Source of the DNA: Kiritimatiellia bacterium | Lineage (GTDB): Bacteria > Verrucomicrobiota > Kiritimatiellia > SLOV01 | DNA length: 64,000 bases | Direction of reading: 5' to 3' | NCBI GenBank assembly: GCA_963578625.1 | Contig: CAUZEO010000001.1 | Span: 14,188-78,187 of the forward strand | Shown: positions 1,811 through 64,000 of the stretch, one piece after another | Position numbering within the stretch: the first letter of the stretch is position 1 | Layout: every line of letters begins with the position of its first letter | Notes under the pieces: model-generated | What the model saw: only the letters and a program-made list of their open reading frames with translations | What the model was told of the DNA's origin: nothing | Databases searched by the model: none | Program-made: the position numbers and the translations under genes

Positions 1811-1938
1811 TATTCAAACCTCTCTTCGCTTGCAAGTTGCAGGAACCACCAAGTACACAAAATACCCACCGAAGCCAAGCCGTAACCAAACGGATTTTGA
1901 ACAGATTATTTTCTTTCTTTCGCCTATTTCGTGGTTCC

Positions 1939-2883: not shown

Positions 2884-2959
2884 GAGAATTGTGTTCAACG
2901 ACGAAATACACGAAACACATGAAAATCCGGATTCTGATCTTTTCCGGGCATTTCGTGGT

Positions 2960-3358: not shown

Positions 3359-3381
3359 GCTGACTCTCCTTTATTATAGAA

Positions 3382-6634: not shown

Positions 6635-6794
6635 CCATCCACTCGCTGCCGCTCGCCGACTCGAAAGCCGGTCGCATCGGCAAGCGAAACGAGTCGGTGC
6701 GTGTTCTTTTCCAGCCAATTCATCCGCAGTCCACCTACTCGAATCCAGACGAAAAGTCGAGAGTTGGCCTGAAAATAGAGCGCTTTCCACAACC

Positions 6795-36319: not shown

Positions 36320-38524
36320 TCAGGCGAACTCGAGGAACGACTCCTCACAGGTCAGTTCGTAGATCCGCACATCTGTCGCCGGCACGGCGGCCTTCAGCCT
36401 GCCCTTCTTGATCATGGCCTCCCCGCTGGAGAGCCACTCGAGACATGACTCGATTTTCTGGCCCTTGACCTTCACCGTTCCCTCCCAGGTTACCTCCCCG
36501 TTGTTGACCAGGGTGACCAGGAGTTTGCGCGGGTCGTCGGTAACGTTCACGATCCACTGGATGGGCCGCCCCTTGACCTTGATCAGGGAGGTTGACTCGA
36601 TCACCGAGCCCACGATCTCCTGCACGACCTTGAGGAAGTTCGGCGGCGGAAACGGACGGCCCCGGATGTAGTCGTTCCGGTAGTTCATGTCCCAGGGCAA
36701 ATCGTCCCGCTTGTGCCAGACGTAGTCGGGACGCTCGCCGGTGGCCCAGAACACCGGCGTGACCACATAGACGCTGCCTTCGCCCACCCGGTTCACGCAA
36801 ACCAGAGGATCGCCGGCATCGTTTACCGCGAGCACCTCGGCGCCGTCGGATTCGACCTTGTCGTAGATGTACTCCGCCTCCTTGTAGCTCTTTCCCGTGA
36901 CCAGGCTCTTCGAGCCCGTCCCCTTCGCGTCCGTTTCCTTCACGCGCAAGCCGGCGAGGTTTGCGAGGGTTCCCCTGAGTTGGCGCGTGCAGAGGACGAC
37001 GGTCCGCCCGGCCCGGACAAACGACTCCACGTTGGCCGCGAAATCCTCGTCGTCGGGCATCCCGCCCAGCAGGACCGCGACCTGGTACTTGTTGAGGACA
37101 TCCATCGACGCGTTGCTCAGGATCACATCGAACGAATCGCCGAGCGGGGTGGGCGTCAGGCATCCCCGGCCGTTGATCGCGTAGGCGTACTCGCCATAGT
37201 TCGGAAAGATCCAGTGGAAGAACTGATCGATCTGGAAATCGCCCAGGGTGTAGTCGATGTTACCCCAGACTTTCTCCGGATGGCCCTGCCCCATGCCTTT
37301 GTGGATGGGCGGGTTCCACCCGTGGTGGAAGTCGAGCACCAGGGCCACCGGCGAGTACTGCACACCGCGGTCCGGGCGCGTCCGCGTGGTCCACACCCAC
37401 TTGCGGTACTCCCGGCCGAACGGCGTGAGGTTGGCCTCCAGGTCGTGCCCCCGTTGGACGTTCTGCTTCTTCATCGCGCCCTTGATGTCGCCCACCCAGG
37501 AGTCTTCCCCTTTCACCGGGATCTCCGGCCGGATCCCCTCCGCCTCGATGGTCGAGAACTCCTTCGGCAAGGCACACATGTCGTCGTAAAAGAGCCCACC
37601 CTCGGTGCCGCACAGACTCAATCCGTACATGTAGCCGGCGAACCAGAGGCGCTTGGCGAGGTGGGTGGGAACGCCGCCGTCGGGGTGGCCGAACATGAAC
37701 TCGACCTTGATGCCGGGGCTGTTCCTCGGGAAACACTTCGTGTTGTAGAAGTCGGGTTTCTGCTCGATGCTGGGCATGAACATGGAGATGTGGGCGTGGG
37801 TGAGCAGGTCGTACTGGCGGGCGGCGCCGCGCAAGAACGCGCAGCGCATGATGCTGCTCTGCAACCCGGTGCCGAGTTCCAGGCCGATCATGCGGTGACC
37901 CATCTCGCCGTAGTAGTGGCAGAAGCCCAGGCTTCCAATGGAGACAACGTGGTGATGGAAGAGGGCGTCGAGGGTGTCCCTGGAGAACCGGACAAAATCC
38001 CCGTAGGCCTCCTTGCGGCTTCGGTCGGGTGATTGCTCAGGCCATTCGTAGGAGCCGAAGACATATTGGGCGCAGTACTCTCCGTCCTGCTCCCCGTTCT
38101 CCCATCCGAGAAACCGCGGCCCGAAAATGTCGAGCAGGAACCGGTGGGTTTCCTCCGGCACCACCGCCTCGCCGGTGCCGTTGAAAAAGTCCATCCCGTG
38201 CCGGATGCCCCAGATGCTGTTGAGGATCAGTCCCTTCTCGGCGTACTTCTTCGCGATCGCCCGCCACCCCGGCTGTTCGTCCTCGATCTGATCGGACCAC
38301 ATGTAGGCACTGAAGGGCCGGATGGCGGTGGCAAAATCGTAGTCGAACATGGTGTTGTGGATGAGGTAGTCCTTCCACCCCATCTGCACGCTCTCCTGGA
38401 AATCCTTGGGGAGGTCGCGGCGGGCCACCGGCTTCGGGTCCAGTTGTTCGTACCGCTCGCCCTCCTCCGGGACGATGGCCTTGTTGGGGATGGGCTGCAG
38501 TTTCAATTCAGGCAAATCGGGCAT
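36320..38524 (-). CDS. Uncharacterised large protein, family A copy A3
   Basis: 734 aa, collinear with A1 and A2. Confidence 0.85.
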   Translation of the reverse strand: MPDLPELKLQPIPNKAIVPEEGERYEQLDPKPVARRDLPKDFQESVQMGWKDYLIHNTMFDYDFATAIRPFSAYMWSDQIEDEQPGWRAIAKKYAEKGLILNSIWGIRHGMDFFNGTGEAVVPEETHRFLLDIFGPRFLGWENGEQDGEYCAQYVFGSYEWPEQSPDRSRKEAYGDFVRFSRDTLDALFHHHVVSIGSLGFCHYYGEMGHRMIGLELGTGLQSSIMRCAFLRGAARQYDLLTHAHISMFMPSIEQKPDFYNTKCFPRNSPGIKVEFMFGHPDGGVPTHLAKRLWFAGYMYGLSLCGTEGGLFYDDMCALPKEFSTIEAEGIRPEIPVKGEDSWVGDIKGAMKKQNVQRGHDLEANLTPFGREYRKWVWTTRTRPDRGVQYSPVALVLDFHHGWNPPIHKGMGQGHPEKVWGNIDYTLGDFQIDQFFHWIFPNYGEYAYAINGRGCLTPTPLGDSFDVILSNASMDVLNKYQVAVLLGGMPDDEDFAANVESFVRAGRTVVLCTRQLRGTLANLAGLRVKETDAKGTGSKSLVTGKSYKEAEYIYDKVESDGAEVLAVNDAGDPLVCVNRVGEGSVYVVTPVFWATGERPDYVWHKRDDLPWDMNYRNDYIRGRPFPPPNFLKVVQEIVGSVIESTSLIKVKGRPIQWIVNVTDDPRKLLVTLVNNGEVTWEGTVKVKGQKIESCLEWLSSGEAMIKKGRLKAAVPATDVRIYELTCEESFLEFA

Positions 38525-42314: not shown

Positions 42315-43055
42315 ATGAAGCCATTGGATCGAATCAAGCTGACTCGCGAGTATGTGCGGCGCTTCGAGCAGGATGGTTTTCTGGTCATGGACCGCCTCCT
42401 CTCGCACGAAGAAATCGATGCATTCCTTGCGCATGAGGCGTCGAGACCCGAGACACCGGATCTGGGATTGCGAGCGCACATGGTTGATCCACAGTGGAAG
42501 CATTTAGCTACCCATCCGAACGTGGCGGGCATAGCCGCGCAACTTCTCGGCGGCCCGTCCCAGGTGGTCCAGACCATGTACTTGCCCAAGAAAGCGGGAA
42601 AAGGGGCGCCGGGAATCGCGCTGCACCAGGATACGCACTATCTGCCGAGCGAACCCAACACGCTGATGGCGTGCTGGATTGCCATGAGCGACACCGACGA
42701 GCGAAACGGGGGACTCTCCGTCGTCCCTGGAAGCCATCGCGAAGAACTGCGCACAACGCATAAATCCTCGCCGGATGACCACCACTCTTGGACGCAGGAT
42801 TACCTGATGCGAGACCAGGCCGGGAAAGAGTGGACGCAGACGTTTTATTCGTTCGAGATCGACAACCTGGACCCGTCGACTCTGCAAACCCTGAAGGTCA
42901 GAAAAGGCGGCGGTGTATTCTTTACCGGCATGACCATTCACGGCTCCTACCTCAACCGCTCCGACCACGACCGTCTCGCCTTCGCGGTCCACTACATCCG
43001 CGAAGGATCCTGGGTCTTCCGCGCCGACGTACAAGACACCATGCCCACATCATAA
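42315..43055 (+). CDS. PhyH-family Fe(II)/2OG dioxygenase
   Basis: LTREYVRRFEQDGFLVMD…ALHQDTHYLP…HGSYLNRSD. Close paralog of 45227..45967. Confidence 0.8.
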   Translation: MKPLDRIKLTREYVRRFEQDGFLVMDRLLSHEEIDAFLAHEASRPETPDLGLRAHMVDPQWKHLATHPNVAGIAAQLLGGPSQVVQTMYLPKKAGKGAPGIALHQDTHYLPSEPNTLMACWIAMSDTDERNGGLSVVPGSHREELRTTHKSSPDDHHSWTQDYLMRDQAGKEWTQTFYSFEIDNLDPSTLQTLKVRKGGGVFFTGMTIHGSYLNRSDHDRLAFAVHYIREGSWVFRADVQDTMPTS

Positions 43056-43217: not shown

Positions 43218-45233
43218 ATGTTGCAATTCCTTACACAAGTCCGGGATCCGGCCTGTGTAAAACAGTTTTTGGATGGCGGCTTTCCGCTCAGGCTCAACAG
43301 CATCAAGCAGATCCAGCAGCACTTTTTCTTTGAGCCAGTACCCGTGATGATACTTTTCCCTCAACCCGGCGGCGGCGGTGAGCGATGCATATCCACGCAG
43401 AACGCGTACGTCTGTAATCCCCGCCTTCTCCTCGTTTGAGAGCTGCGGCGGCACCGCACATTCTTCGGAATGTTCACTCACGTTCAATCCAAGCGATACC
43501 GCCGTGTCATAAAGCATTCTCGCTTCAAGCCACTGACGGGCGCACAACTGCTCGTAGATCTTCTTGAGTTTTCGGTAGGCTTCATACGGGGCCGTGTCCG
43601 ACCAGTCCAGGATCGGTTCGCCGTCCCAGTTCGAGATTTTCCATCCATTCATCGGCGTATCGACTCTCAGATTGAATAGCGGCTGGACGTCGGGGTGAGG
43701 GTGTTCGGAATTGGCAAATGTTAGCAGGTTCACAGTCCGGTTCACACGCCACGTCTGTTGCACGTTTCCGTACTCCGCCAAACCATACTCAATGCGGTCG
43801 ATAAATCCGTTTCCGTCGGTGTCGTGGTAGCGTACGAGGTCGTGAAGGAGTCCTTTGCCGGGCTCCGGGCCTTCATCGGTTGTTGCGCCCCATGCGCTTG
43901 AGCGGTCGATGGCGCCTTTGAAATGACCATAGTAGTCAACGTTCCAGTCGGCTTCGTCTGCCCGGTACAGGTGGATCCTTCCGTCAAATGCACCGATGTA
44001 GAGCTGCCCTTTCCCGTCGAAATCCGTGTCGTGTTCGACCCGATCCCCCAGCTTGTCCGAGAAGATCCGGGTGTCCGAGTATTTGTCATTCCGGGCAAAC
44101 ATCTCTTCCCAACGATTGTCGTCATTGTCCTCATCAAAGAGCCACCAGGTGCCGATCCATCCGTCAAAGTCCGTCGCGATCTTGTACCCGTCCAGGTACG
44201 GAAGATAAAAGCGCCTGTCTTCACGCGCCATCTGCTCCCACCCGCTGCCGAAAAACTTCCGGGCATAGGCCGGCGCAGGCAGTGCTTCGATCTTGTCCAG
44301 GTAGTTCGTGAGAGGAAGCCCGGGCGTCCAGTACGCGGTATAGGTCAACTGGCAATCCAGGCTGTGCCACTTCTCGCGGCTCAGCTCGCCATTGAGCTCG
44401 AAGGCAAACTCGGCTTCATGAGCCCGGGCCGATTGCCCCTGCAGGTCATGGGTGGGATACCCTTCGTCGGCGATGCGCATGACCATCTCGGTGAAGCCGT
44501 CGTGATTGAAGTCATACCAGGCAATGGGCGTTTCCCAGGCCAGGGAGACGTCGCCCCAATGGATCCTGGTGTTGAGAAAAAATCCGCTGCCGTGGACGTT
44601 CTGAAAGTATCTCCCGCCCTCGGCGTAGCCATGCTCATTTCCGTAGCCGAACCCTGCAAAATTCAAGTGCTTGAAGTCACGCTCGCCATTCAGATTGACC
44701 ATGGTTTCGACCACCGTGTTCGCGCAAAAGTACTCCAGGTCCGGACTCCCGTCCTGGTTCAGATCCACAATCCGGTAATAGAAATCCGCCTTGCCACTGA
44801 ACTCCCCGTCGCCGTCGTTATCCGCCAGCAGCAAATAGCTGCCCCAGTTCGCGCGCAACGGGTTCCACACCACCGGCGGCTCGGCGCCGGCCGAGAAGGC
44901 CTCCGTCAATGTCTCTGCCGGGTCGAGGGATGCCGCCTGCCACCGCGGCAAAAAATCGCTTCCCTCATCGACCACCACGACTCGCTTTTGATTCCATAGA
45001 GTGTGAAGCGTATCGACCGTGCCATCTCCGCTCAGATCTTCATAGAAAGGCATTGCCGCGTCATCAGTCCCGTCTTTTTGAAGATCGGCAATCGCGGAAC
45101 CACTACCGGTCGCTGTGAAAACGCAGCAGAGCGGCAGAATTGCCCAAGAAAAGCTGCAATGCAGATTCGCCTTCATCAGCGGCAGCATCTGGCATAGAAT
45201 TAATGAAAGCAACGTCGAACACCCATATGACAC
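43161..45233 (-). CDS. Hypothetical secreted protein with Asp-rich (calcium-binding-like) repeats
   Basis: 690 aa, N-terminal signal peptide, DNDGDGEFSGKADFYYRIVDLNQDGSPD-type motifs. The 3' end is inside the MITE-like element. Confidence 0.6.
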   Translation of the reverse strand: MSYGCSTLLSLILCQMLPLMKANLHCSFSWAILPLCCVFTATGSGSAIADLQKDGTDDAAMPFYEDLSGDGTVDTLHTLWNQKRVVVVDEGSDFLPRWQAASLDPAETLTEAFSAGAEPPVVWNPLRANWGSYLLLADNDGDGEFSGKADFYYRIVDLNQDGSPDLEYFCANTVVETMVNLNGERDFKHLNFAGFGYGNEHGYAEGGRYFQNVHGSGFFLNTRIHWGDVSLAWETPIAWYDFNHDGFTEMVMRIADEGYPTHDLQGQSARAHEAEFAFELNGELSREKWHSLDCQLTYTAYWTPGLPLTNYLDKIEALPAPAYARKFFGSGWEQMAREDRRFYLPYLDGYKIATDFDGWIGTWWLFDEDNDDNRWEEMFARNDKYSDTRIFSDKLGDRVEHDTDFDGKGQLYIGAFDGRIHLYRADEADWNVDYYGHFKGAIDRSSAWGATTDEGPEPGKGLLHDLVRYHDTDGNGFIDRIEYGLAEYGNVQQTWRVNRTVNLLTFANSEHPHPDVQPLFNLRVDTPMNGWKISNWDGEPILDWSDTAPYEAYRKLKKIYEQLCARQWLEARMLYDTAVSLGLNVSEHSEECAVPPQLSNEEKAGITDVRVLRGYASLTAAAGLREKYHHGYWLKEKVLLDLLDAVEPERKAAIQKLFYTGRIPDLCKELQHVGWASKPDPEQGVIIERE

Positions 45234-45967
45234 TTCAAAATCGAATCAGGTTAAGCTTGGAGCAGGTCTCGCGATACGAGAAGGACGGATTTCTGGTCAT
45301 CGAAAATTTCGTGTCACACGAAGAGATCGATGACTTCATTGCCCACGAGACAACGAGATCAGGCACGCCGGATCTCGGATTACGGGCCCACGAGGTGGAT
45401 CCGCAGTGGAAACACCTGGCTATACATCCGGACGTAGCCGGCGTAGCGGAGCAACTGCTCGGCGGGCCTCCTCGGATCGTGCAATCCATGTACATACCCA
45501 AGAAAGCGGGCGAAGGAGAGGTCGGGGTAGCGCTGCACCAGGATACGCTCTACCTGCCCAACGAATCAAACACGCTCATGGCCTGCTGGATTGCAATGAG
45601 CAACACGGCGGCCGGCAACGGGGGCCTCTGTATTCTACCGGGCAGCCATCTTGATGGCTTGCGTACGGCGCATAAGAGCGGGGAGGGGGAACACAGCAGC
45701 TGGACGAAGACTCACCTGATGCGCGACCGTACCGGGAAAGAGTGGGAGCAGGAGTTTTTTTCATTTGAAATAAATGACATCGATCTGTCGTCCCTTGTGA
45801 AGCTGGATGTTCCGAAAGGTGGCGGGGTCTGTTTTACGGGATTGACGATTCACGGCTCCTACGCAAATCGATCCGATACCGACCGCCTTGCGTTCGCGGT
45901 TCACTATGTAAAAGAGGGCACCTGGGTTTTGCGGGCGGACGTGCAGGAAACGATGGCGGTGAAGTGA
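45227..45967 (+). CDS. PhyH-family Fe(II)/2OG dioxygenase (paralog)
   Basis: MTLQNRIRLSLEQVSRYEKDGFLVIE…ALHQDTLYLP…HGSYANRSD. The ORF opens at 45140; the Met at 45227 aligns with the paralog start. Confidence 0.8.
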   Translation: MTLQNRIRLSLEQVSRYEKDGFLVIENFVSHEEIDDFIAHETTRSGTPDLGLRAHEVDPQWKHLAIHPDVAGVAEQLLGGPPRIVQSMYIPKKAGEGEVGVALHQDTLYLPNESNTLMACWIAMSNTAAGNGGLCILPGSHLDGLRTAHKSGEGEHSSWTKTHLMRDRTGKEWEQEFFSFEINDIDLSSLVKLDVPKGGGVCFTGLTIHGSYANRSDTDRLAFAVHYVKEGTWVLRADVQETMAVK

Positions 45968-46059
45968 TGTACGTGCGTTTGCGGTTGGCCTATGCCGGAT
46001 TTCGAATTTCGAATTTCGGATTCGTCGGGGCCGCTGCGAGCCGCGAACCTGGTGATGAA

Positions 46060-47045
46060 TCATCGGCGCAGGTACGATTCAGGAGCCCCGCCGGACAAGC
46101 GCCGGCCGTCGACCTCCAGCGTGAAGAGGTTCTGCTCCAACGGCTCCCGGAGCGCATCCTCCCGCATGGACTTGTGCGTCAGCTTTTTCAGGGATATCCC
46201 GTTGTGATGTCGAAGCACGACACGCATCGCGCCGTTTTCAAAGGTATCGCTCTCATCGCCTTCCACAAAGCGGGGCGCCGTGTCCGGCGGTGCCTGCAGT
46301 GGGGTAAATTCCGGTGCCATATCGATCGCCGGCAGGGGCGGAAAGTCCTCGTGACTGAACGAAAGATCATCCTTGTTGGCGTTGCGGTTGAGGAGAACCA
46401 TCCGGACCATGTATTCGCCGGCAAAGCCGTCCTTATTTAGGGGGCGCGGCATCCACGTCGCGCCGGCATCGGTTGATCGGGAACTGCAGCCCTGATCCTC
46501 AAATATGTCGATGCTGATCACCAGCCGGTCGTCGTTCTCCGGTGAATCCGAGCTGGGGTGGATGACGATCTCATTCGGACCATGGACGAGCTGCTTCCCG
46601 GGAATGTCGAAGTCGAACCAATTGATGGCCAGCCGGATGTCGAACCAGCCCCATCCGGTGCTGACGAGGTTCTCCGTAGGGAACGTGTTGGTATGACCGT
46701 TCACCATCACCTGAAACGTCCCGTCGAGACCATCGCCCTCGTCGTCCTGCGCGTGCATGAAGATGTTGACCCGGGCCGACTCGATGGCGGCAAAGTCCTG
46801 ATCCGAGAGATCGGTCAGATCCAGGATTTTCTTGATTCGCTCCGCTGAGGGCCGCTGCGTGACGTGGCTGTAGTCCTTGTAGTTGTAGAACGAATAGTCG
46901 GCGGTGGCCACGAACACGCCGGGTTCGGGTTCGATGATGGTTGCAGGCTGCGCCGCGCTGACTACCGCGGATACCCGGGCAGGAGCAGAACAAGCGATGC
47001 GACGGCAGCATTCCGGACAAGGCACGCATGAGTCCCAACTGTCAT
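46060..47045 (-). pseudogene. Family-B N-terminal-domain remnant (frameshifted start, truncated after ~320 codons)
   Basis: Encodes the B-family N-domain (…VATADYSFYNY…FQVMVNGHTNTFP…ISIDIFEDQG…FSHEDFPPLPAIDMAPE…ENGAMRVVL…LFTLEVDGRRL) and then stops. The ATG at 47045 has an AAGGAG SD and a signal-peptide-like start in another frame. Confidence 0.55.
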
Positions 47046-47143
47046 TTCAATCTCTCTCCTTGTGTGTGGACTTCATCTACTCTTGGTCACCTACGCTGGG
47101 GGGGGGTGAGGAATCTACTCACGCGGATCCGTTTCGAGTGCTG

Positions 47144-49879
47144 TCAGGGAGCCGTCGAATCAGACCCCGGCCAAACGACCGCATCCACGAGGCGGTCGTT
47201 TCGGTGGATTTTCAGGACGAGGCCCGGCTGATCGCGTGCTTCGGCCGGCCAGTCCAGTCGCTGCCTTCCGCCGGTGAGCGGGAATTCAGCCAGCACGGTA
47301 CCATCATCGCCGACCAGCTTGCCGGTCATTCCTTTCGCGTCTTTGGGAAGATGCAATTTGCCGCCGTCGCGCTTCCACTCCACTTGTGCCAACTCAGGCA
47401 GTCGGGCAACGATAGCAGCTTTGCGGGCGGGAAGACTGATCGGGAGCACCGACTGATTACCCTTCCGGGAGGTAGACAATTCCGCATGGCGTAGCAGGTC
47501 GACAACGTGAGTGCCCGGTTTCGCATCCAGCAAGAGCAGATCGCCTTCCACCGCCTCGTTCCGCGCATTGTAGATCGTGTAGACCGTCTTTTCTCCCGCA
47601 GGAAATTCGTTGGCATAGACCTGCGGCATTAACGTGGGAATCATGGGTTTTGGGTATAACGCGCCGAAGGCATCGGCGTTTTCCTGCATGACCGCCAGTT
47701 CTTTCGGCGAGAAGCACCATTCCCGGTTGAACGCCCCGGTGGCGTTGAATATTCGCCACTCCGGAACTTTGGATAACACCTGGTAATCGAAAATCTTGAA
47801 GCGTGGAAAATAGAAGCGTGCGACGTTGATGCCCACAAATCCTTCCACCTCGCCGAACGTGGGAAGGATCTGCCGCCATTCGGATAGATCGTAGGACAGG
47901 GTGCCGTCGAAATATTGCCAGATCAGGTCGAAGCCGGGATTCTCGGTCATGAGCACCGTGTCCGGGTCCACCTGGTCGACAGCCATACGTACCTGCCGGG
48001 CGGCGGCAAGCTGGGCCTGGGCGTCGACCTGGTGATTCGGCTCACCGAATGTGTGCGTGTGGCGGTCGTTGTAACAGATCGGATTGTTCGCACCCATGAC
48101 GTCGATACGAATGCCGTCGGTCCCGGTTTCCACGGTCAATCGACGGCAGGTTTCGGCGATGTATTCCCGCCACTCCGGGTTGTTCATGTCCATGCCCCAC
48201 ATGGCGCCCATGGGCCACTGGTACCGGGGTTCGGGCCAGTCCTCGTGCTTTTCAATGACGCCCCACTCCGGGCCGTGGCGCGCACCGATGATGCTGGAGA
48301 GCGCGGCCTCACCGACATTGATGTAGAGCGTGACCACGTAGCCCAGCCGTTTCATATCATCCAGATAGCCGCGAAAGGCGGGAAGTCCACCCCACCGCTC
48401 GTTGTACCCCTGGAGGCCGTAGTCGCCCTGGTTGCCCCAAAAATACCGGGTCCCCTCCATGAATGGATCCCCCCGAATTTCCGGTTCGTGAGGAAATTGA
48501 AACGCAAATTTCCCATCCTGCATGATGGCGGACCGTTCCGACGTGACCACGTTGGTATGGCCTGCCTGCTCAATGGCGGTTTTCCGGTGTTTCTCAAGAT
48601 ACTCGTCGGTGACCACATCCCATTCCCAGTAGGAGGTGTGCTCCACCATGTCCAGCGGGGAGCTCAGATACTCGCGGGAGTGCTCGCCTTCGAAAATCGG
48701 GATGTGCCCCCATTGTCCTATATCAGTGTTGTACCCGTTTTCATTGTGAAAATGATGCGCCGCGCTGGTTCCCTCGAGGTTGAACCGGTCGATCAGTTTT
48801 CCCGGATGAGGCCGCTGATGCGCGAAGCTCTCGAACCAGGACCGGTAGGCCTCCATGGCCTGGCGCCAGTCCCCATTGCAGACGCCGAGCACGGCGGTGG
48901 GAAGAAACCAGCGCTCGTCGGGTTCGAGGTTACGTTGTTGATACGTGAACGCCATAGAGGTGCCGGGTTCCGCTTCCAGCGGATCGTGAAACACCAACTC
49001 TCTCACCAGCCGGCCATGCCTCATGGCTTCCTCGGTGGTCCGAAATCCAAACTCCGTCCGACCGTCGGGGACGTTTGCCTTGTTCAGGTGCATGATCTTG
49101 AATTCGCCGGTCTGATCTGCGGCATTGAGATAGAGCCCCCCGCCCTTGTCCGGCCGATAGGATGCCATGACCTGGAAGTAGGCCTGTCCGCCGCCGTAGG
49201 CATTGGCGAACACGGCAGGCGACTTGGATAGAATACCGGTGAGCAACGGGTAGAAGAAATGATCTTCCGTTGGGTCGCTGTCCCAGGCGATGCCGGTGAG
49301 CATGGGAAAGGCCACGTTGACATCTTTCGCGGCAGCGCCCGTATTCTGCAACGACAAGCTGATGCGGAGTTCCGGACCCTCGTCGGCGCGGATCTCCACG
49401 GTCGCGTGAATACGCTGATCGCTTTCCAATTCGTAGCGGACAAAGGCCGACCCGGGAGGCGAAACCGGTTCGGTCCGCGAGGCGACCCGAAAAGCGCGGC
49501 TGTCCACCCGGTCCCCGTCGATCATCAACGTGAAAAACGGGCTGCCCTCTTCTGATTCGATGACGGACGCCCCTGCGGGACGATGGTGGAATTCGCGGAC
49601 CGCCAGTCCCGGATCGGTCTCCATGAGCATACGGAACCACCCGTTCTCCAGCGTGTCCGCGCCGGATTGAGACGTGATGGTTGCAGCTTGCGATGCAGGC
49701 GATTCGAGTTCAAGCACCGGCGGATTCAAGTCGATCGACTTTGCTCCGCTCGATGCGGCATGAACCTGTGAGGCCACCAGGCAGGGAATGAAATACAGTG
49801 AATAAATGAGTGTGCGTGCCACGGCGAAGAACTCCTTGATATTTTGATCCCAATGCTTCCGGCGCGAGCCGACGGTCAC
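47144..49879 (-). CDS. Family B copy B3, core-only variant (own signal peptide, lacks N-terminal domain)
   Basis: 911 aa. Begins with the signal peptide TLIYSLYFIPCLVASQVHAA and then joins the B alignment at IDLNPPV. All core blocks are conserved. Confidence 0.8.
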   Translation of the reverse strand: MTVGSRRKHWDQNIKEFFAVARTLIYSLYFIPCLVASQVHAASSGAKSIDLNPPVLELESPASQAATITSQSGADTLENGWFRMLMETDPGLAVREFHHRPAGASVIESEEGSPFFTLMIDGDRVDSRAFRVASRTEPVSPPGSAFVRYELESDQRIHATVEIRADEGPELRISLSLQNTGAAAKDVNVAFPMLTGIAWDSDPTEDHFFYPLLTGILSKSPAVFANAYGGGQAYFQVMASYRPDKGGGLYLNAADQTGEFKIMHLNKANVPDGRTEFGFRTTEEAMRHGRLVRELVFHDPLEAEPGTSMAFTYQQRNLEPDERWFLPTAVLGVCNGDWRQAMEAYRSWFESFAHQRPHPGKLIDRFNLEGTSAAHHFHNENGYNTDIGQWGHIPIFEGEHSREYLSSPLDMVEHTSYWEWDVVTDEYLEKHRKTAIEQAGHTNVVTSERSAIMQDGKFAFQFPHEPEIRGDPFMEGTRYFWGNQGDYGLQGYNERWGGLPAFRGYLDDMKRLGYVVTLYINVGEAALSSIIGARHGPEWGVIEKHEDWPEPRYQWPMGAMWGMDMNNPEWREYIAETCRRLTVETGTDGIRIDVMGANNPICYNDRHTHTFGEPNHQVDAQAQLAAARQVRMAVDQVDPDTVLMTENPGFDLIWQYFDGTLSYDLSEWRQILPTFGEVEGFVGINVARFYFPRFKIFDYQVLSKVPEWRIFNATGAFNREWCFSPKELAVMQENADAFGALYPKPMIPTLMPQVYANEFPAGEKTVYTIYNARNEAVEGDLLLLDAKPGTHVVDLLRHAELSTSRKGNQSVLPISLPARKAAIVARLPELAQVEWKRDGGKLHLPKDAKGMTGKLVGDDGTVLAEFPLTGGRQRLDWPAEARDQPGLVLKIHRNDRLVDAVVWPGSDSTAP

Positions 49880-51315: not shown

Positions 51316-52221
51316 TTGCGTAAGAGCGTGAAGGGAGAGTACACGGAACCCATGAGTAATAACCACCATATTCCTGACGGTACAACCGTCCGTATGGGCG
51401 GGAAGGAGCTCGTGTTCGGGGAACACATTGTCAACCTCCCTGATGCGAGCTCAATGCTGGATGATGTAGAGACAATGCGTCAGCAGCTTGTTGACGAAGC
51501 GTTTCTTTTCATTCGGGGGCTCCACGATCCGAAGCTGGTGCATGGGGCGCGCCTGGAAATATTGAAAGAGGTAGAGAGGCAAGGCGGCATCGCGCCCGGA
51601 ACATCGCTTGATGATGCGGTGATTGCCGAGAACAACGGGTACCTTCCAGACGGAACCCGTATCGGAATTCAAGATGAAGTGGTTCGCCGGATGCCTTCGC
51701 TGCTCGGCCTTACGAACGGCGAACGAATGCTCGGGTTTTTCGACGGGCTCCTGGGTAGACGGGCCAACACCTATACCCACAAGTGGATCCGCATTTACCA
51801 ACGGGGCCACGCAACCGATATTCATTACGATGCACCGTACATGGGCCGAGACGCGCCGGAAATGGTGATCACCGCCTGGACCCCGCTGGGCGATATCTCC
51901 CTCGACATGGGGCCGATCACACTTGTACCCGGATCAAACCGGTTGGATCACTTGAAAGCTGCATATGGAAAGGAAGATGCGATCCGCGGCGAGTCCACCG
52001 GGTATTTGACGAACGATCCGTTCGACGTCGTAAACACGCATGGCCTCAAGTTCGCCACGACAATTTTCGAGCCCGGCGACATGCTCCTCTTCACGAAATA
52101 CATCCTGCACGGCTCCCTGGAGAACACCACGAACCGTTACCGTCTCAGCACCGACACACGGTACCAGCACGCCGACGAAAAGCATGACGAACATTATACG
52201 TTTGAGAAGCGTTCCGCCTGA
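51316..52221 (+). CDS. PhyH-like Fe(II)/2OG-dependent oxygenase superfamily protein
   Basis: HATDIHYD (H-x-D) and LHGS motifs with a PhyH-like layout. The start may be the Met at 51352. Confidence 0.55.
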   Translation: MRKSVKGEYTEPMSNNHHIPDGTTVRMGGKELVFGEHIVNLPDASSMLDDVETMRQQLVDEAFLFIRGLHDPKLVHGARLEILKEVERQGGIAPGTSLDDAVIAENNGYLPDGTRIGIQDEVVRRMPSLLGLTNGERMLGFFDGLLGRRANTYTHKWIRIYQRGHATDIHYDAPYMGRDAPEMVITAWTPLGDISLDMGPITLVPGSNRLDHLKAAYGKEDAIRGESTGYLTNDPFDVVNTHGLKFATTIFEPGDMLLFTKYILHGSLENTTNRYRLSTDTRYQHADEKHDEHYTFEKRSA

Positions 52222-52390: not shown

Positions 52391-55300
52391 ATGAACCAGA
52401 GATCAAGTTTCACTTCAGCTCGCCGAACCCTTTCGAGATCGTTGTCACCCATTATCGCAATCCTTGCGCTTGCGGCTGTGTCCACATCGCAGGCGAATGG
52501 CACCACAATTCTCCAGCCGACCGGCGGTGTCCACGTGGCCGTAGCCGACATGGGGTTTTACGATTTTCAAAATTTTGCCCACGTGGTACTCGCGAAGCCG
52601 TCGCAACGACTGAGGAAGGTGCTGGACCTGTCCGGCATTGATGAGCAGGCCTGGCAGAGGATCGGCGCGGCCGAAGTGAGCCTGTTCCTGCACGCCGAAG
52701 ATGCGTCAGGGGACGGACTCGATGAACATTTTGAAATTGTCGTTAACGGCCACGTGAACGTATTCGCTACCGAGGGCCTACGCCGTACTGGAATGGGATG
52801 GTTCGGGCACTACCTGCCCACCGGTTGGTTCGATTTCGCAATCAATGCGGACCAGCTTGTTCGTGGAACAAACGTGATCGTGGTTCAGAGAAGCGATTCC
52901 GCACAGGCCGGAGACGATGTATTAACCATCGGTATCGATATTTTCGAAGACAGGGGCCGGAGCTGGTGTTCGTTCGATCGCGGTTCCAGCTGGAGCCCGG
53001 GACCCTTGAACCGGCCGTTGGCGAGTGTGGGCTATCCCGACTACGGGCACTACGGAGAGTTGATGATTCGTCTCAATCTCTACGACGACGCTACCCGCCT
53101 GGGAAGAAAAGGATTTTCCCACGATGATCTTTTGCCGTTGCCGGCTGTGGACTTGAACCCTCCGGTAAAGCTGCTGCCGACTCCATCAACCTTCCCGGCA
53201 AGTGTTGCACTTGGAGGGGAAATCGACCGGCTGGAGAACGGATGGATGCGCCTGCAGATTGGGCATGCCAAGGGTCTGGCCCTGGAGGAGATAATCCATA
53301 AGCCCATGCGCAGGAACGTGGTAAAGGAAGGCCCAACCAGCCTGTTTGCGCTGGAGGTGGACGGGCGGCACGTGCAAAGCGCCGAACTGGAAGTGACGGG
53401 CCGCGAGCAGCTCGCTACGGGTTCGAGCGCGGTGAAGGTTGTTTACTTTCTCCGGGATCCGACCAGCGAGGTGGAAGCGAACCTCTCACTGCGACTGGAC
53501 AACGAGTCCGAGCTCACGGCAGGCCTGTATTTGAAGAATGCGGGTACGGCACCCCGCGGCATCAAGGTGGCGTTTCCGATGCTCACCGGCCTGGGGTGGA
53601 GCGAGGGATTCAAGGACGATTGGTATCTGTTCCCCTACACCACGACCGGAGTCATGCTGAAACACCCGGGGAAATTCGTAAATCCCTATGGCGGGGGAAC
53701 CGGCTCGGGGAACACGTTCTTTCAACAGATGACGTCCTACTCGCCTTCGATGGGTGGAGGCCTGTACATGAGAGCGAACGATTCCAGTGGCGGGTACAAG
53801 CTTTTTCATCTCACGCGAACCGATGCTACCGGATCGCCGCCCTCGTTTTCGTTCCAGGGAATCATCCACAATATGCTGCATGGCCAGGCCACGCCGCAGC
53901 TTGTCTTTCTCGAGCCCTCAAAACCGGCCGCCGGCACCAGCATGGCGGTCAGCTACATTCAGCGTGAATTGGCGCCCGGCGAGCGGTGGATCCTTCCCCA
54001 GTCCGTCATCGGAATCATGAACGGCGACTGGCGCCAGGCGATGGAGAGCTACCGTGCATGGTACGAAGGCTGGTCGCACAAGAGACCCTATCCCAGCAAA
54101 CTCGCCGCCGTCTTTAACCTCGACGGTGTCAATGCAGCGGGGGGCTACCACAAGGAGGATGGATACCATTCGGATTTCCACGAAGCGTGGAGCCGGCCCG
54201 CGGATGGGCTCGAGCACACATCCTACTGGGAGTGGGACGAGGTAACGGATGAGTACCTGGCCGAAATGCGGGAACTCGCCGCCCGCTACGGCAAGGAGTT
54301 CACCTTGTGGCCGGGCCGTCACGGGATCCACGGGGGAACACATTACTATCACGAAAGCAGAAAGGGAGACTACGGCCTGACCGGGTACAACGAACGCTGG
54401 GGCGGTCTTCCCGCGTTCCGGAAATACATCGATGAGGTGAAGAAGCAGGGCATTCTTGCCACCCTCTATGTCAACGAAGGGGAGGCCGGGCTGAACAGCG
54501 TTATCGGGCGGGAAAAGGGGCCGGACTGGGGCGTGATGTATCCGGACGGAGTTTACTTCTGGCCCTACTGGATGTGGGAAATGTGCGTCGACAACCCGCG
54601 GTGGCGAACCTACCAGGCGGATTTCTGCAGACGGCTGATCGCGGAGACCGGGGTCGACGGCTTGCGCATTGACGAATTCGGGGGGGCATCGCGCATCTGC
54701 ACCAATCCAGGTCATGAGCACACCTTCAACCGCCCCGGTCATTACGCCACGTTCGAGGCACAGACCGAAGCGTGCCGGCAGATCCGGATGGCCGTGGACC
54801 AGGTCGACCCCGATGCGATCGTGATGAGCGAGACGCCGGGAATCGACACCATGTGGCAATACCTGGACGGCGCGCTGAATTACGATCTCACGCAATCCTC
54901 GTACACCGGGGGCCGGGCCGCAAACTGGGAGGGATTCGTGGGGCTCAACATCTGCCGGTTCTACTTTCCAAGATACAAGCACTTCGACTACCAGATCCCG
55001 GAAAAGCTTCCTGCATGGCGGTTGTTCAATGCCACCGGGGCATACAACAATGAGTTTTTCTACGAGGAACTGGAACACTCCATTTTGAAGGAGAATGCCG
55101 ATGCGGTCGGTACGTTGAATCCCAAACCCATGATTCCCACGCTGCTGCCCAGGGTCTACGTCAACGAGTTTCCCGGCGAGGAAAAGACGATCTACACGGT
55201 GTATAACAGCAGGCACGCCGCTGTTTCGGGAGACTTGCTGGCGGTGCCGCACAGGCCCGGATTTCATTTCGTGGACCTGGTCAACATGGAAGAGGTGGGG

Positions 55301-55612
55301 TCACGGAAAGAGAAGGGCGTGGAGATTATTCCAATCCATCTTCCCGCGCGAAGCGCCACCCTCGTCGCCCACATGCCAAAGCTGTTAACGCTCAAGCGAA
55401 GCAGGGGGCGCGTCGATGTGAAATTGAATCGAGAAGTCCCGGGCGGAACGTTCCACGTGATGAAGCGCGATGGCCCCGTGCTGCCTCCTGCTTCCGTTGA
55501 AGGCCTGAAATTGAAACTCGATCACATCGAATTCATCGGGAACATCAAGGACCCGATGATCATCAAGCTGCAGGTAGGATCGAGGCTGGTGGATGCGGTG
55601 GTGGTGGACTAG
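52391..55612 (+). CDS. Family B copy B2 (secreted)
   Basis: 1073 aa, signal peptide, full-length collinear with B1. Confidence 0.85.
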   Translation: MNQRSSFTSARRTLSRSLSPIIAILALAAVSTSQANGTTILQPTGGVHVAVADMGFYDFQNFAHVVLAKPSQRLRKVLDLSGIDEQAWQRIGAAEVSLFLHAEDASGDGLDEHFEIVVNGHVNVFATEGLRRTGMGWFGHYLPTGWFDFAINADQLVRGTNVIVVQRSDSAQAGDDVLTIGIDIFEDRGRSWCSFDRGSSWSPGPLNRPLASVGYPDYGHYGELMIRLNLYDDATRLGRKGFSHDDLLPLPAVDLNPPVKLLPTPSTFPASVALGGEIDRLENGWMRLQIGHAKGLALEEIIHKPMRRNVVKEGPTSLFALEVDGRHVQSAELEVTGREQLATGSSAVKVVYFLRDPTSEVEANLSLRLDNESELTAGLYLKNAGTAPRGIKVAFPMLTGLGWSEGFKDDWYLFPYTTTGVMLKHPGKFVNPYGGGTGSGNTFFQQMTSYSPSMGGGLYMRANDSSGGYKLFHLTRTDATGSPPSFSFQGIIHNMLHGQATPQLVFLEPSKPAAGTSMAVSYIQRELAPGERWILPQSVIGIMNGDWRQAMESYRAWYEGWSHKRPYPSKLAAVFNLDGVNAAGGYHKEDGYHSDFHEAWSRPADGLEHTSYWEWDEVTDEYLAEMRELAARYGKEFTLWPGRHGIHGGTHYYHESRKGDYGLTGYNERWGGLPAFRKYIDEVKKQGILATLYVNEGEAGLNSVIGREKGPDWGVMYPDGVYFWPYWMWEMCVDNPRWRTYQADFCRRLIAETGVDGLRIDEFGGASRICTNPGHEHTFNRPGHYATFEAQTEACRQIRMAVDQVDPDAIVMSETPGIDTMWQYLDGALNYDLTQSSYTGGRAANWEGFVGLNICRFYFPRYKHFDYQIPEKLPAWRLFNATGAYNNEFFYEELEHSILKENADAVGTLNPKPMIPTLLPRVYVNEFPGEEKTIYTVYNSRHAAVSGDLLAVPHRPGFHFVDLVNMEEVGSRKEKGVEIIPIHLPARSATLVAHMPKLLTLKRSRGRVDVKLNREVPGGTFHVMKRDGPVLPPASVEGLKLKLDHIEFIGNIKDPMIIKLQVGSRLVDAVVVD

Positions 55613-56160
55613 CCGCCAACATCCACAGACCACCCGGATTCCGATGACCGCTGGGCGGCCTCAATGATCTTAATCGACTCGCGGACGCCGGCCGGATCCA
55701 CCGGAACCGGACCTTCTCCCATCAGGTGCGATGCGACCTTCTGATAAAACCCGCGCATGCGTTCGACGCCGGCGGGAGTTCGGCCCCTTCCACCCGGCGG
55801 CGCGGCTGAAATTTCTTTTTGGCCACCCGCGCCAACTCGACCCTTCGAGGGGACTGATGTGCTCGCGTTGCGGGCCGAATATTCCCGTAAATTCAATCAG
55901 GGAACAATCGAGGATGCGTCCGTTGCGGGCCTGTACGTACCCGTCCCAGCAGAAGTCCGTGTGATGAAAGGCGTGCTGGGCATACCAGAACCAGTATCCC
56001 CACTGGATGCGGATGGAATAGGTTTCTTTCGCGGCCGGACCATACCGGAAGAGGAGATCGCCGTCCTAACGAAACGTTCATTCGAAAATAGTTTGGAGGC
56101 ATCAATGATGGAATGTAATCGATCAGGCCCGGGATACGCATTTATGTCTGAGTTCCGCCT
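55609..56160 (-). pseudogene. Possible remnant of an oxidoreductase (Gfo/Idh/MocA-like C-terminus)
   Basis: Two minus-strand frames give …DGDLLFRYGPAAKETYSIRIQWGYWFWYAQHAF… and …GFYQKVASHLMGEGPVPVDPAGVRESIKIIEAAQRS…, joined only by a frameshift. There is no intact ORF. Confidence 0.3.
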
Positions 56161-56271
56161 TTAGGCGGAAGCAGTTATCCGGCTTCAGCCGGGAATACAC
56201 CGCCCGGAATCATTCCTGTTACCGGGTCGCTGAAGCTCCCCCGGGCTTCCGCCTGAAGGCGGAACTCAGAC
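56146..56271. repeat. 126-bp palindromic element with 27-bp terminal inverted repeats
   Basis: gtctgagttccgcctttaggcggaagc … gcttccgcctgaaggcggaactcagac (26/27). Each arm is itself a hairpin, and the interior holds ccggcttcagccgg. Confidence 0.65.
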
Positions 56272-56323
56272 CTCTCCCACGTCTGGACTTATCGCTGGGA
56301 AATTGGGTGCTTGTGGTGAGTTT

Positions 56324-58204
56324 TCAACGACCCGCAATAGCCCCCAGCCCTTCAATGGCCTCCGCAATTTGCGCCCGGGCCGCGTAGAGGTTGCGGGCAT
56401 CGCTGTCATAGTCCGTCATGCTGCGGACGAGCTCGTGGACGGTGGCCAGTGCCGCCTCGCCGGCGACGATCGCTGCGGCGCTGCGTGGATCTTCGGATCT
56501 ACCGGCCCGGGCACGTGCCAGGGCTTGTTCGAGCACCCAGAAATATTCCTTGTCCTCGAGTCCTTCGCGGATCATTTCCCATCGGATGGAGTTGACCGGG
56601 CCCGCGATCAGCGGCTCGTCCGGTACACCTCGGGCCGGTGGATAAAGCAGCAACCCGTCCCCGTTGCCAAAGTGCCCTCCGCCGGGTGAGATCGCCATCG
56701 CGGTCTCCCAGGGGTTGCGGATGGCACGATCGGCGACGGCTTCTCCGATACCTTTATAATAGTTCACGCTCCAGTAGAGGGTCCCGGTCACTTCGTATTT
56801 CTTCATCATCCAGAAATGAATCCGCTGGTTGATGGCGGGATGATCGATGAAATTGTTGGCGTACGGGTGCTTGGGGCCGGTGCAGATATACCACCAGATT
56901 TCATCGCCGGCCGCGCGGCTCTTTTGGGCCCTGGATTCGTCGTAGTGTGAGGTTAGCGGCACCCAGATATCAACTGCGTCGTCAATCTCGTGTCCGATCC
57001 CCAGCGTCACCAGGCGTTTCAGCCCGGGACAGATCCGCCGGACCAGTTCGCCTTCCTGTACTATCAGCGGAAAATCCGATTCGGGGGGCTCGTCCCACAG
57101 ATAACAGTAAACCCTGTCCTGCCAACCTTTTTGTTGCACGTGTTTCCAGATGGGACCGAGAATGAGTTCAAAATACCGGTCGTAAGCCGGGTCTTCGCGC
57201 CATTTCCCCTCGCTGCGTCGGGGGCTGAACCGCGGTGGTCCGAACAGGTCGTTGGGGGGCCAAAACAGGCAAACCGAATTGAACCCCAGTTCATCCAGGT
57301 AGCGGGTGGCCAACCGGTCGAACTCGGTGAGGTCCAGTTCCAGGTCGCCGGACTCCCGGTTCCTGCGATTCACCAGTTCGCTTGGGCTGAGCTTTACGCG
57401 GGCAAGATCCGTGAGGTTGAAGCCGTGCGTAACCGGAGAAACGCGATGCTCGGCGAAATTCTGCATGTAGAGATCGTGAACCTCTGCCCGCTCGGCGCCG
57501 GTTCGGAGGCCATGGTACGCGAAGTCGTCCATCCAGATTCCATACGCGCTCCGGGTGTGGGTATCCTCAGGCAATGTGAAGTCCCAGACCTTCAAACGGA
57601 GAGGCACCCGATGATCGTCGGTGCCGGTCCGTTGCAGAATGATGGTGCCCGCATAGTCTCCGGCAGCCGCGTCCGCCGGCACATGGATGGTAATCCAGAA
57701 CGGATTGTTCTTTCCGCCCGACAAGTCTGCCGGCCCGTCCGTCGGGGGCAGCGGATCCGGCCAGTCGCCTGCCGTGCCGAAGGCATCGGTTGAGTCCGTC
57801 ACGGGTACGTACTCCGCGCGGTCGATTCGAATCGACTCTCCACGAATGGACGCCGAGCCCGGGCCCTTCAGATCGCTGATGTTGATTTGAATTCCCGGCA
57901 TCGATTCCGCCGGCCGCAGTACGAGTTGGAACGGTTCGTACTCGTTTCGGGCGGCCGCGATTTCAACATGCGTTGTGGTTGAAGTGGGAGTCTCTCGTTC
58001 CCGGCCCACTTTATACGTTCCTTCACACCACCACAGCTCCAAGCCGTCCGGACCCGTAAGGCTGTAGCCGAAATCCGTTGCCAGGATCTCCGGCACCGGG
58101 GAAGCGGCTATACTCATCGGGACTCCGATAGCTGCCACGGACATCCACGACACCCAGGTTCGCTTGATTGGCATCATGCCTTCCTCTCTTATGCGTTCGG
58201 GCAA
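56324..58204 (-). CDS. DUF4091-like secreted protein (putative glycoside hydrolase)
   Basis: 626 aa with a signal peptide. GNGDGLLLYPP…IREGLEDKEYFW C-terminal block. Parent of the pseudogene at 13094..13623. Confidence 0.7.
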   Translation of the reverse strand: MPERIREEGMMPIKRTWVSWMSVAAIGVPMSIAASPVPEILATDFGYSLTGPDGLELWWCEGTYKVGRERETPTSTTTHVEIAAARNEYEPFQLVLRPAESMPGIQINISDLKGPGSASIRGESIRIDRAEYVPVTDSTDAFGTAGDWPDPLPPTDGPADLSGGKNNPFWITIHVPADAAAGDYAGTIILQRTGTDDHRVPLRLKVWDFTLPEDTHTRSAYGIWMDDFAYHGLRTGAERAEVHDLYMQNFAEHRVSPVTHGFNLTDLARVKLSPSELVNRRNRESGDLELDLTEFDRLATRYLDELGFNSVCLFWPPNDLFGPPRFSPRRSEGKWREDPAYDRYFELILGPIWKHVQQKGWQDRVYCYLWDEPPESDFPLIVQEGELVRRICPGLKRLVTLGIGHEIDDAVDIWVPLTSHYDESRAQKSRAAGDEIWWYICTGPKHPYANNFIDHPAINQRIHFWMMKKYEVTGTLYWSVNYYKGIGEAVADRAIRNPWETAMAISPGGGHFGNGDGLLLYPPARGVPDEPLIAGPVNSIRWEMIREGLEDKEYFWVLEQALARARAGRSEDPRSAAAIVAGEAALATVHELVRSMTDYDSDARNLYAARAQIAEAIEGLGAIAGR

Positions 58205-58325
58205 GGTAGTTGAATTTGCCGGGCATAGACAGACCGAATTCCAGTGGCCCGAAGCAAGACCCGCCTCATCTGGAGGGGCAACGGGGACGTTGCCCCACCG
58301 GGACGCTGATGCCCGTAACCTGCCC

Positions 58326-62923: not shown

Positions 62924-63150
62924 CGCGGTCACCGACAATAGCCTGCACTCACATTGGTGTGCAATCCCTAACGCTGTAGATATGGGGAAAACCGAATGGC
63001 GCTTAGTTAAGCGCAGCTTTGGATCGAAGAGCGACGGAAGGCTGATTTGTAATCCGCCATTATCTACGATGTTTTCGGCCCTTTCACGGCGGATTGAAAA
63101 TCCGCCCTCCATCCAGCCATAATCGAACGCGGCCGTACTGTAGCGCGAAG

Positions 63151-64000
63151 TCAGGAATCGCCGGGGACCACTGCATCCACCAGCAGTTTTCCCCGGTAGA
63201 GTTTGCAGATCACTCTTCCTGAATCGGCAGGTATGGTAAGCGTCGCACGCCCGGTCCCCGCTTCTTCTTCCGCGAGGATTTTTCCAGAGAGGTCTACCAG
63301 TTTAAGCGTCGCGTCTTCGAAGTCATCCGACAGACGAACCGTGAGTTCGCGACCTTTCTGTTTCACCTTCATCAACTTCGACAGGTGGGCAATACAGGTG
63401 ACAGAGCGCGGTTCGAGCTCGATGGCGACCACGGTCTTGTCGCCCCTCGTGGAGGCTTTGACGTTGCGGTACCGGTACAGATCGACCAGGTGCGTGCCTT
63501 TGCGGGCGGGGATGTCCAGCAGAGCACCCTTTGCCGGGATGTTCGCCGCATTGTACACGGTCCACACGGTTTTGTCCTTCGCCGGGAATTTGTTCACGTA
63601 CACCAGGGGAATCTTTGACCTGATCATCGGCTCCCGATCCAGCGACCCGAACGCATCGCTGTTGTCCCGCAGGATATGCCGCTGGTGCTCGCGGTAACAC
63701 CATTCCCGATTAAATGCTCCGGTGGCATTAAAGAAACGCCACTCAGGCTGTTTCAGGCTGATCTGGTAGTCGAACATCTTGTGGCGGGGAAAGTAGAAAT
63801 GATGGATGTTGATGCCGACGAACCCCTCCCAGTTTGCCGCCACGTGGGCGGTGAACGGCTGTTCCGTCAGGTCGTAGCACAAACTGGCGTCCAGGTACTG
63901 GCCCAGCACGTCGATACCCTGGGACTCCGAGAGGAGGACCGAATTCGGATTCACGCCGTCCATGGCACGGCGCACTTGCCGCGCGGCATCGGACTGCGCC
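63151..64000 (-). CDS. Family B copy B4, C-terminal part (5' end beyond window)
   Basis: …VDGVNPNSVLLSESQGIDVLGQYLDASLCYDL…FYFPRHKMFDYQ…FNATGAFNREW…PMIRSKIPLVYVNKFPAKDKTVWTVYN matches the B core C-terminus. The frame stays open to 64000. Confidence 0.75.
   Translation of the reverse strand, partial: AQSDAARQVRRAMDGVNPNSVLLSESQGIDVLGQYLDASLCYDLTEQPFTAHVAANWEGFVGINIHHFYFPRHKMFDYQISLKQPEWRFFNATGAFNREWCYREHQRHILRDNSDAFGSLDREPMIRSKIPLVYVNKFPAKDKTVWTVYNAANIPAKGALLDIPARKGTHLVDLYRYRNVKASTRGDKTVVAIELEPRSVTCIAHLSKLMKVKQKGRELTVRLSDDFEDATLKLVDLSGKILAEEEAGTGRATLTIPADSGRVICKLYRGKLLVDAVVPGDS

Follow-up and report, generated by a model that had tools for sequence, protein, structure and literature searches.

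Glycoside hydrolases of family 36 (GH36) and of clan GH-D, as exemplified by 9awt/8x1b and AgaA/AgaB, are built of three successive parts, a beta-supersandwich, a barrel and C-terminal beta-sandwiches. Carbohydrate-binding modules (CBMs) are discrete beta-sandwiches on flexible linkers, present in some paralogs and absent from others. The deletion-truncated paralog pseudogenes of bacterial accessory islands consist of a 5' fragment with a secondary frameshift and an intact ortholog elsewhere, together with paralog redundancy and sibling null alleles that show microhomology at their junctions. All three bear on a locus, in an uncharacterised enzyme family that we call family B, within 64,000 nt of a Kiritimatiellia bacterium (GenBank assembly GCA_963578625.1, contig CAUZEO010000001.1, positions 14,188 to 78,187; hereafter the window). 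The closest named relative of the contig is an uncultured Verrucomicrobiota metagenome-assembled genome (MAG). In this locus B3, a gene that encodes the core of the family, is followed by the remnant of another paralog, B4. Based on homology, the lesions themselves, synteny, reproducibility across assemblies, fold and selection statistics, we consider it very probable that the locus is an old tandem pair of an intact core-only B3 and a recent B4 pseudogene, and a case of ordinary paralog turnover.

The reference for the structure model and the homolog census was B2, a full-length paralog that is 51% identical to B1. In its AlphaFold model (66-sequence alignment, pLDDT 91.5, pTM 0.91) a beta-sandwich N-domain and a linker precede the same three-part build as in GH36 and clan GH-D (Table 1). 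The best match of the B2 model in a Foldseek search of the PDB was to the GH36 alpha-galactosaminidase of Flavonifractor plautii (9awt/8x1b; E = 1e-23, target-normalised TM-score 0.65-0.67), and the part after the linker groups with GH36, alpha-galactosidases included, and with the clan GH-D-like folds GH31, GH101 and GH129. Family B differs from these enzymes in that sequence identity to them is merely 10-14% and in that some members add an extra N-terminal jelly-roll domain. A phmmer search of PDB sequences gave nothing significant (E of 0.12 or worse), no GH36 Pfam model matched, and matches to GHL15, GH66 and alpha-amylase stayed below threshold. B1, B2 and B3 pass the gathering threshold (28.7) of DUF6259 (PF19773) in the barrel region, with 48.4, 48.4 and 50.5 bits, respectively. 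DUF6259 is itself uncharacterised; a literature search found no function and no paper attached to it, and it has no NCBIfam model. The motifs 'DG(L/I)RID' and 'ExPG' are conserved in B1-B3, as read by eye in the translations rather than from a superposition on GH36 active sites. We suggest that family B comprises putative secreted glycosidases with a GH36-like core, their enzymatic activity being predicted from the modelled fold.

Table 1. Features of the B3-B4 locus, other family B copies in the window and parts of the B2 model. Positions are nucleotides of the window unless given as residues.
Feature	Position	Strand	Description
B3	47144-49879	minus	911-aa open reading frame (ORF), intact, core-only; putative secreted DUF6259/GH36-like glycosidase
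Shine-Dalgarno-like AAGGAG of original B4	47056-47061	minus	aligns with GGAG before intact B4 starts in L005 and L007
Orphaned original B4 start	46962-47045	minus	ATG 47045, 27 codons, ends TAG
B4 remnant ORF	46060-47025	minus	321 codons from GTG 47025; 118 nt downstream of B3
N-domain-encoding part of remnant (jelly-roll beta-sandwich)	46330-46947	minus	codons about 27-232; from alignment and AlphaFold model
Linker and first 5-6 strands of next domain (GH36-type N-terminal beta-sandwich)	46090-46329	minus	homology overlap with B3 residues 48-125
Deletion junction	46060-46089	minus	B4 homology gone; nine unrelated codons GAPESYLRR, then stop
Spacer between remnant and convergent PhyH gene	45968-46059		no B homology
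PhyH gene	45140-45967	plus	convergent with remnant, 92 nt past remnant stop
B1	27706-30948	plus	full-length reference paralog, 1080 aa
B2	52391-55612	plus	full-length reference paralog (N-domain and core), 1073 aa
Fifth family B copy	about 63166-63999	minus	cut by window end
B2 model: signal peptide	N-terminus		
B2 model: beta-sandwich N-domain	residues about 37-235		
B2 model: unstructured linker	residues 236-270		B3 begins here
B2 model: beta-supersandwich	residues 271-545		
B2 model: (beta/alpha)8 barrel	residues about 546-910		
B2 model: C-terminal beta-sandwiches	residues 911-1073		

Judged by homology, the sequence downstream of B3 is the 5' end of a different paralog, B4, up to codon 312; in relatives B4 is intact (about 1070 aa). 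The remnant ORF, a 285- or 321-aa hypothetical protein according to gene callers, shows 42% identity to B2 residues 22-328 (E = 2e-74) and 38% to B1 residues 17-321, and is colinear with all B4 orthologs through '...LEVDGRRLSG' (codon 312, nt 46090). With B1, B2, B3 and four B4 orthologs as queries, no B homology was found in any frame below about 46090, and the rest of B4 is therefore truly absent rather than frameshifted. The cut is equivalent to B2 residue 328, 5-6 strands (about 60 residues) into the ~275-residue second beta-sandwich (271-545); it therefore falls inside a module, and nothing of the barrel is left. No Pfam model matches the remnant, since the deletion took all of the DUF6259 region (B2 residues 537-845), and only N-terminal homology to B1, B2 and B4 places the remnant in the family. 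When the remnant is modelled with AlphaFold, pLDDT is mostly 84-97 in strands 28-212 and 49-65 in the last 30 residues.

In relatives, an intact B4 directly follows the B3 ortholog. The MAG contig L008 carries B3 (3502-6201) and then B4 (6319 to the contig end); its B4 has 941 codons free of stops, which cover a signal peptide, the N-domain and the core, and shares 55% identity with the remnant. Full-length B4 genes (1060-1075 aa) are present in L009, L010, L011 and L013, in the last again downstream of a core-only B3-like gene. Truncation relative to intact syntenic orthologs is one mark of a pseudogene that the remnant carries.

A second such mark, a disrupted start and frame, is directly visible. 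The AAGGAG motif (47061-47056) and ATG 47045 open a 27-codon ORF, 'MTVGTHACLVRNAAVASLVLLLPGYPR*', with its stop at 46964-46962, which holds the hydrophobic signal-peptide core AAVASLVLLL in a frame that differs from that of the body. Measured from the ATG, the conserved 'PAT' codons lie out of frame in the window, at a distance of 98 nt; this distance is 105 nt for L005 and 102 nt for L007. The sole possible start of the remnant body is GTG 47025, and the resulting N-terminus has no hydrophobic core (Kyte-Doolittle values of 2.82 in the orphan frame versus 1.37 in the GTG frame). A programmed -1 frameshift from ATG 47045 into the body frame was considered and ruled out, there being no X XXY YYZ heptamer in the overlap.

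All features named in the first-pass annotation of this DNA are present at its coordinates. It had described the downstream ORF as what is left of a copy with the N-domain, its start frameshifted and its end premature, which is borne out by the 98-nt offset and by the stop after 321 codons. It had further held that the remnant encodes just the N-domain; the N-domain is indeed encoded, but so are the linker and about 60 residues of the next beta-sandwich. The homology overlap with B3 that it had put at about 90 aa exists and measures 78 aa.

If sequencing or assembly had introduced the lesions, as the first-pass annotation had allowed, 46060-47045 would be the start of an intact gene. Such errors may occur in this family: L005, L006, L007, L019 and L020 are short low-coverage contigs with many frameshifts that may be artefacts, L020 having a coverage of 1.28x and two frame breaks, and L019 (from the same JGI metagenome as L007) one mapped frame change and gene calls of four ORFs in 2.5 kb. 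The region 45900-47300 (1401 nt), however, is 100% identical in L002 and L004, which come from other samples, and in L001, which is probably the window's own contig, and in L003 four substitutions, without gaps, separate it from the window. When proteins are clustered at 90% identity, the remnant falls in a group of 16 (285, 321 or 348 aa; from JGI, ENA, NCBI and Logan), all of them truncated, and the tail 'GGAPESYLRR' is common to the five whose sequences were read. Given that the lesions recur in the assemblies of other samples, they are not sequencing errors. Moreover, the missing 2.3 kb is no point error, since the convergent PhyH gene lies 92 nt past the stop and no B homology is found beyond it. 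We regard an artefact as extremely unlikely. The frameshifts in L005, L006 and L007 were also considered as independent B4 pseudogenisation, a proposal that we downgraded because they may be artefacts; similar assemblies carry frame breaks.

B3 aligns to B2 from B2 residue 252 (B3 residue 48) onward only, with 43% identity over about 865 aa (E = 0), and its signal peptide (codons 1 to about 42) is joined directly at 'IDLNPPV' (codon 49, nt 49735). Core-only orthologs occupy the equivalent tandem position in two further metagenomes. The syntenic B3 ortholog in L008 is 67% identical, has its signal peptide joined to 'LDLNPPV' and lies about 60 nt from a divergent GFO gene; in L013 a gene that is 45% identical to B3, and identical to P0016, likewise has the core-only build. 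The B3 clade, with a bootstrap of 69 in a neighbour-joining core tree, is nested in a clade (95-97) whose other branches all carry the N-domain, and this domain was therefore lost secondarily, long ago.

This loss, and the presence of the domain in B1, B2 and B4, could be taken to mean that B3 is itself an N-terminally deleted pseudogene in the making. The loss is old, however, and L008, L013 (P0016) and P0015 have all kept the core-only form; B3 has an intact ORF, a signal peptide and a DUF6259 match; its strain single-nucleotide polymorphisms (SNPs) comprise one nonsynonymous and seven synonymous changes (1N:7S); and core-only architecture is common across the wider family. Decay of B3 is thus very unlikely. 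It appears instead to be a functional member of a conserved core-only subfamily. The earlier description of B3 as a protein with its own signal peptide that lacks the N-domain was correct, and the claim of two B copies in different states of decay was not, the remnant alone being decayed.

A census of homologs places B3 in a wider context. A phmmer search with B2 among 1.84 billion representatives returned 769 homologs, of which a handful have the N-domain. Many are core-only with a short leader (among them P0015, P0016, P0031, P0046, P0049, P0051, P0083, P0090, P0103 and P0111), and many others have an unrelated N-extension of 220-400 aa joined at B2 residues about 246-285. P0010 (465 aa, on a 116-kb contig) was not used as a different architecture: its C-terminal tail looks like out-of-frame translation, and its locus is broken into short ORFs, possibly in a long-read assembly, as the name 'contig_N' hints. 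Proteins of family B without the N-domain, whose occurrence in related genomes had been raised as a question, are thus found both in L008 and L013 and among these homologs, and the proposal that the N-domain is a separable module is supported by them and by the discrete sandwich and linker of the B2 model.

No Pfam model covers the N-domain, and its best fold matches are weak. They are jelly-roll or CBM-like, at an E of about 1e-3 and TM-scores of 0.2 or less (normalised by the whole 320-residue query), and include CBM35, the BcsB carbohydrate-binding domain and rhamnogalacturonan lyase domain III. As a discrete beta-sandwich on a flexible linker that is present or absent among paralogs, the N-domain resembles CBMs, from which it differs in that its marginal matches place it in no CBM family. 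From these predicted folds, it may have a role in carbohydrate binding.

Given that B3 and the remnant are same-strand neighbours that jointly cover all domains of the family, they could instead be reordered halves of one ancestral B gene, separated by fission or permutation and working together. The 78-aa overlap between them would fit this explanation, but identity across it is merely 25.6% (E about 1e-6), and the order is core first and N-domain second. B3 and B4 form separate clades on the core tree, the tandem in L008 and L013 consists of a core-only B3 and a complete B4, and the remnant has lost its export signal. We give this explanation almost no credence, in agreement with the original view that the locus is not a simple gene split.

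The history of selection on B4 can be examined through comparison with relatives. The ratio of nonsynonymous to synonymous substitution rates (dN/dS) of the N-domain part of the remnant is 0.12-0.17 against L005, L006 and L008, and 0.126 against L007, the closest relative, at a dS of 0.32. The window branch, polarised with L005, has 4N:10S, and, given these low values, purifying selection acted on B4 up to a recent time. The remnant's counts within the population are 3N:1S, compared with 9N:28S for the intact genes pooled (Fisher p = 0.068, with four remnant SNPs). These are four of the 12 SNPs between L003 and the window, in 8.5% of the length, a density about 5-fold above that of the rest of L003, and one of them corresponds to a Ser in the window at a Gly that is conserved in 10 of 11 aligned N-domains ('IGIDIF'). 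The within-population pattern is suggestive, although not conclusive, of relaxed constraint on the remnant, the inactivation of which was probably recent.

Some of the same observations would be expected if the remnant were a functional, stand-alone soluble protein, carbohydrate-binding-like and under selection, with translation beginning at GTG 47025, or at ATG 47045 followed by a -1 slip. In this scenario the 321 open codons, the confidently modelled fold of the N-domain and the fixation of the truncated form in all sampled strains would follow, as would the low dN/dS and the 4N:10S of the window branch, but low dN/dS is expected anyway if inactivation was recent. The 3N:1S within the population, with the loss of the conserved Gly, points the other way. 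In addition, the export signal is lost, though every intact family member is predicted to be secreted; the ORF ends mid-domain, in about 60 residues of a partial beta-sandwich and nine junk codons; no slippery heptamer occurs from the ATG to the TAG; and a strain variant deletes the 5' end altogether. No such protein was found in 5.8 billion and 1.84 billion proteins, where short matches are fragments left by contig ends or frameshifts. Word-indexed protein searches gave 4 matches for the remnant, 1 for the B2 N-domain and 11 for an N-domain profile, all of them fragments, and revealed no stand-alone N-domain family. A selected stand-alone protein is therefore unlikely.

Several points do weigh against a recent B4 pseudogene. 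The remnant has stayed open over its full length with a low dN/dS relative to relatives, which also fits a stand-alone N-domain protein that is still selected, and an in-frame GTG exists; the signal of relaxed selection comes from just four SNPs, with p of about 0.07; and that no product is made from the remnant is what we infer from the sequence. No relative close enough to show the undeleted B4 was found, and the distal end of the deletion and its mechanism are therefore inferred.

With a recent pseudogene as the preferred explanation, we propose the following history. The B3 subfamily lost its N-terminal jelly-roll domain long ago, so that the signal peptide now joins the linker before the catalytic core. 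In B4, a deletion of at least 2.3 kb removed everything beyond codon 312, cutting the second beta-sandwich and taking the whole (beta/alpha)8 barrel, and a 1-nt frame change within the signal-peptide coding region left the body out of step with the Shine-Dalgarno site, ATG and export signal of the gene. Loss of B4 was probably tolerated, given that B1, B2, B3 and a fifth copy remain. The deletion probably arose like those that truncate B2 in strains of the same population, with short microhomologies at the junctions. Recombination between two PhyH paralogs was considered as its cause and rejected, these being 71% identical at the DNA level and the junction having no informative repeats.

Other structural variants occur in the family. 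In L016-L018, from three other samples and 99.6-99.8% identical, B2 is cut at codon 396 (P0006, 431 aa). Here two deletions, 53581-56988 and 57245-58243, have the junction microhomologies TCCGAT and GTGGCCCGAA (the latter with one mismatch), and most of the GH123 gene is lost as well, a 256-nt fragment of it (56989-57244) being left between the deletions. P0174, a B2 allele, has an apparent 2-nt (AC) insertion, deduced from the translation, after 'LEVDGRH' (window 53360-53375), and ends at ~287 aa; the insertion lies within about three codons of the homolog of the B4 breakpoint, which may be coincidence. In L021 (ERZ23490109; 1-249 / 238-7042) window 2257-2505 is joined to 47032-40240, inverted and with a 12-nt overlap, as either a structural variant or a chimeric junction, and the N-terminal sequence of P0169, on a second contig, matches this variant. 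The break at 47032 removes the Shine-Dalgarno site and ATG of the remnant and results in a 348-aa ORF call. P0019 (526 aa), from the representative search, has the N-domain but has lost two large internal stretches beyond it without a change of frame, the first or second of these losses starting right after 'GWSDSFADDYYM', and is a further instance of deletion-driven decay in family B.

Frameshifting indels (three 1-nt deletions and one of 31 nt) are concentrated in the ~25 nt that follow the conserved 'GWSxGF' codons, at L005:1740-1775, L006:2462-2470, L019:1060-1070 and L020:~1025, which are homologous to B2 at window 53605-53640. Each of the four short low-coverage contigs that span the site has an indel, in two paralog lineages and four metagenomes, and all long contigs are intact there. 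The cluster may be an assembly artefact or a mutational hotspot. Together with the several B2 and B4 null alleles that co-exist in one population, it bears on a reading in which the stub would be retained as a functional N-domain protein in its own right, and in which a hypermutable or switch-like site in family B, rather than random decay or assembly error, would switch glycosidase paralogs between on and off states. We consider this combined reading improbable.

The surroundings of the pair include genes for GH123, a GHL6/fucosidase-like protein, an ABC (ATP-binding cassette) sugar transporter, a GFO/IDH/MocA oxidoreductase and PhyH dioxygenases, and the region is a carbohydrate-utilisation island. 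The fifth family B copy (within 63151-64000) is represented by its C-terminal 280 aa, with 43-46% identity to B1-B3. A second paralog family, 'A' (734-752 aa), has copies at 6795-9002 (minus strand), 25429-27687 (plus) and 36320-38524 (minus) that are 65-75% identical; it has a weak Glyco_hydro_42M match only, and one copy lies directly upstream of B1. Three PhyH-type dioxygenases are interleaved with the glycosidase-like genes on the plus strand, the one listed in Table 1 and those at 42315-43055 and 51316-52221. The first two of the three are 67% identical in protein and 71% in DNA, and L008 has two tandem copies of the third type. The minus strand encodes two unusually long ABC-transporter proteins, at 60224-63112 a 962-aa fusion of an SBP_bac_1 solute-binding domain and a BPD_transp_1 permease, and at 58326-60206 a 626-aa permease with an N-terminal extension of ~340-440 residues that has a sub-threshold local GH42-like match. 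The spacer next to the remnant holds an (AATTTCG)x3-like repeat, GGATTTCGAATTTCGAATTTCGGATTCG, at ~45997-46024. Folding of 45960-46070 (111 nt) was no better than that of shuffled controls, and promoter, terminator and RNA-folding scans of these positions gave nothing above background.

These results are of use chiefly for annotation, and also for the family as a whole. The 285- or 321-aa 'hypothetical protein' of many metagenome assemblies is very probably a pseudogene fragment, which should not seed a protein family or be taken for a natural stand-alone domain. DUF6259 can now be assigned a fold with confidence, namely a GH36-like core to which some members add a jelly-roll module at the N-terminus, and the module boundary at B2 residues about 236-270 is useful for expressing the enzymes with and without the module. 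In other respects, what the locus shows is tidy but ordinary, a carbohydrate-utilisation island in which paralogs turn over by deletion.

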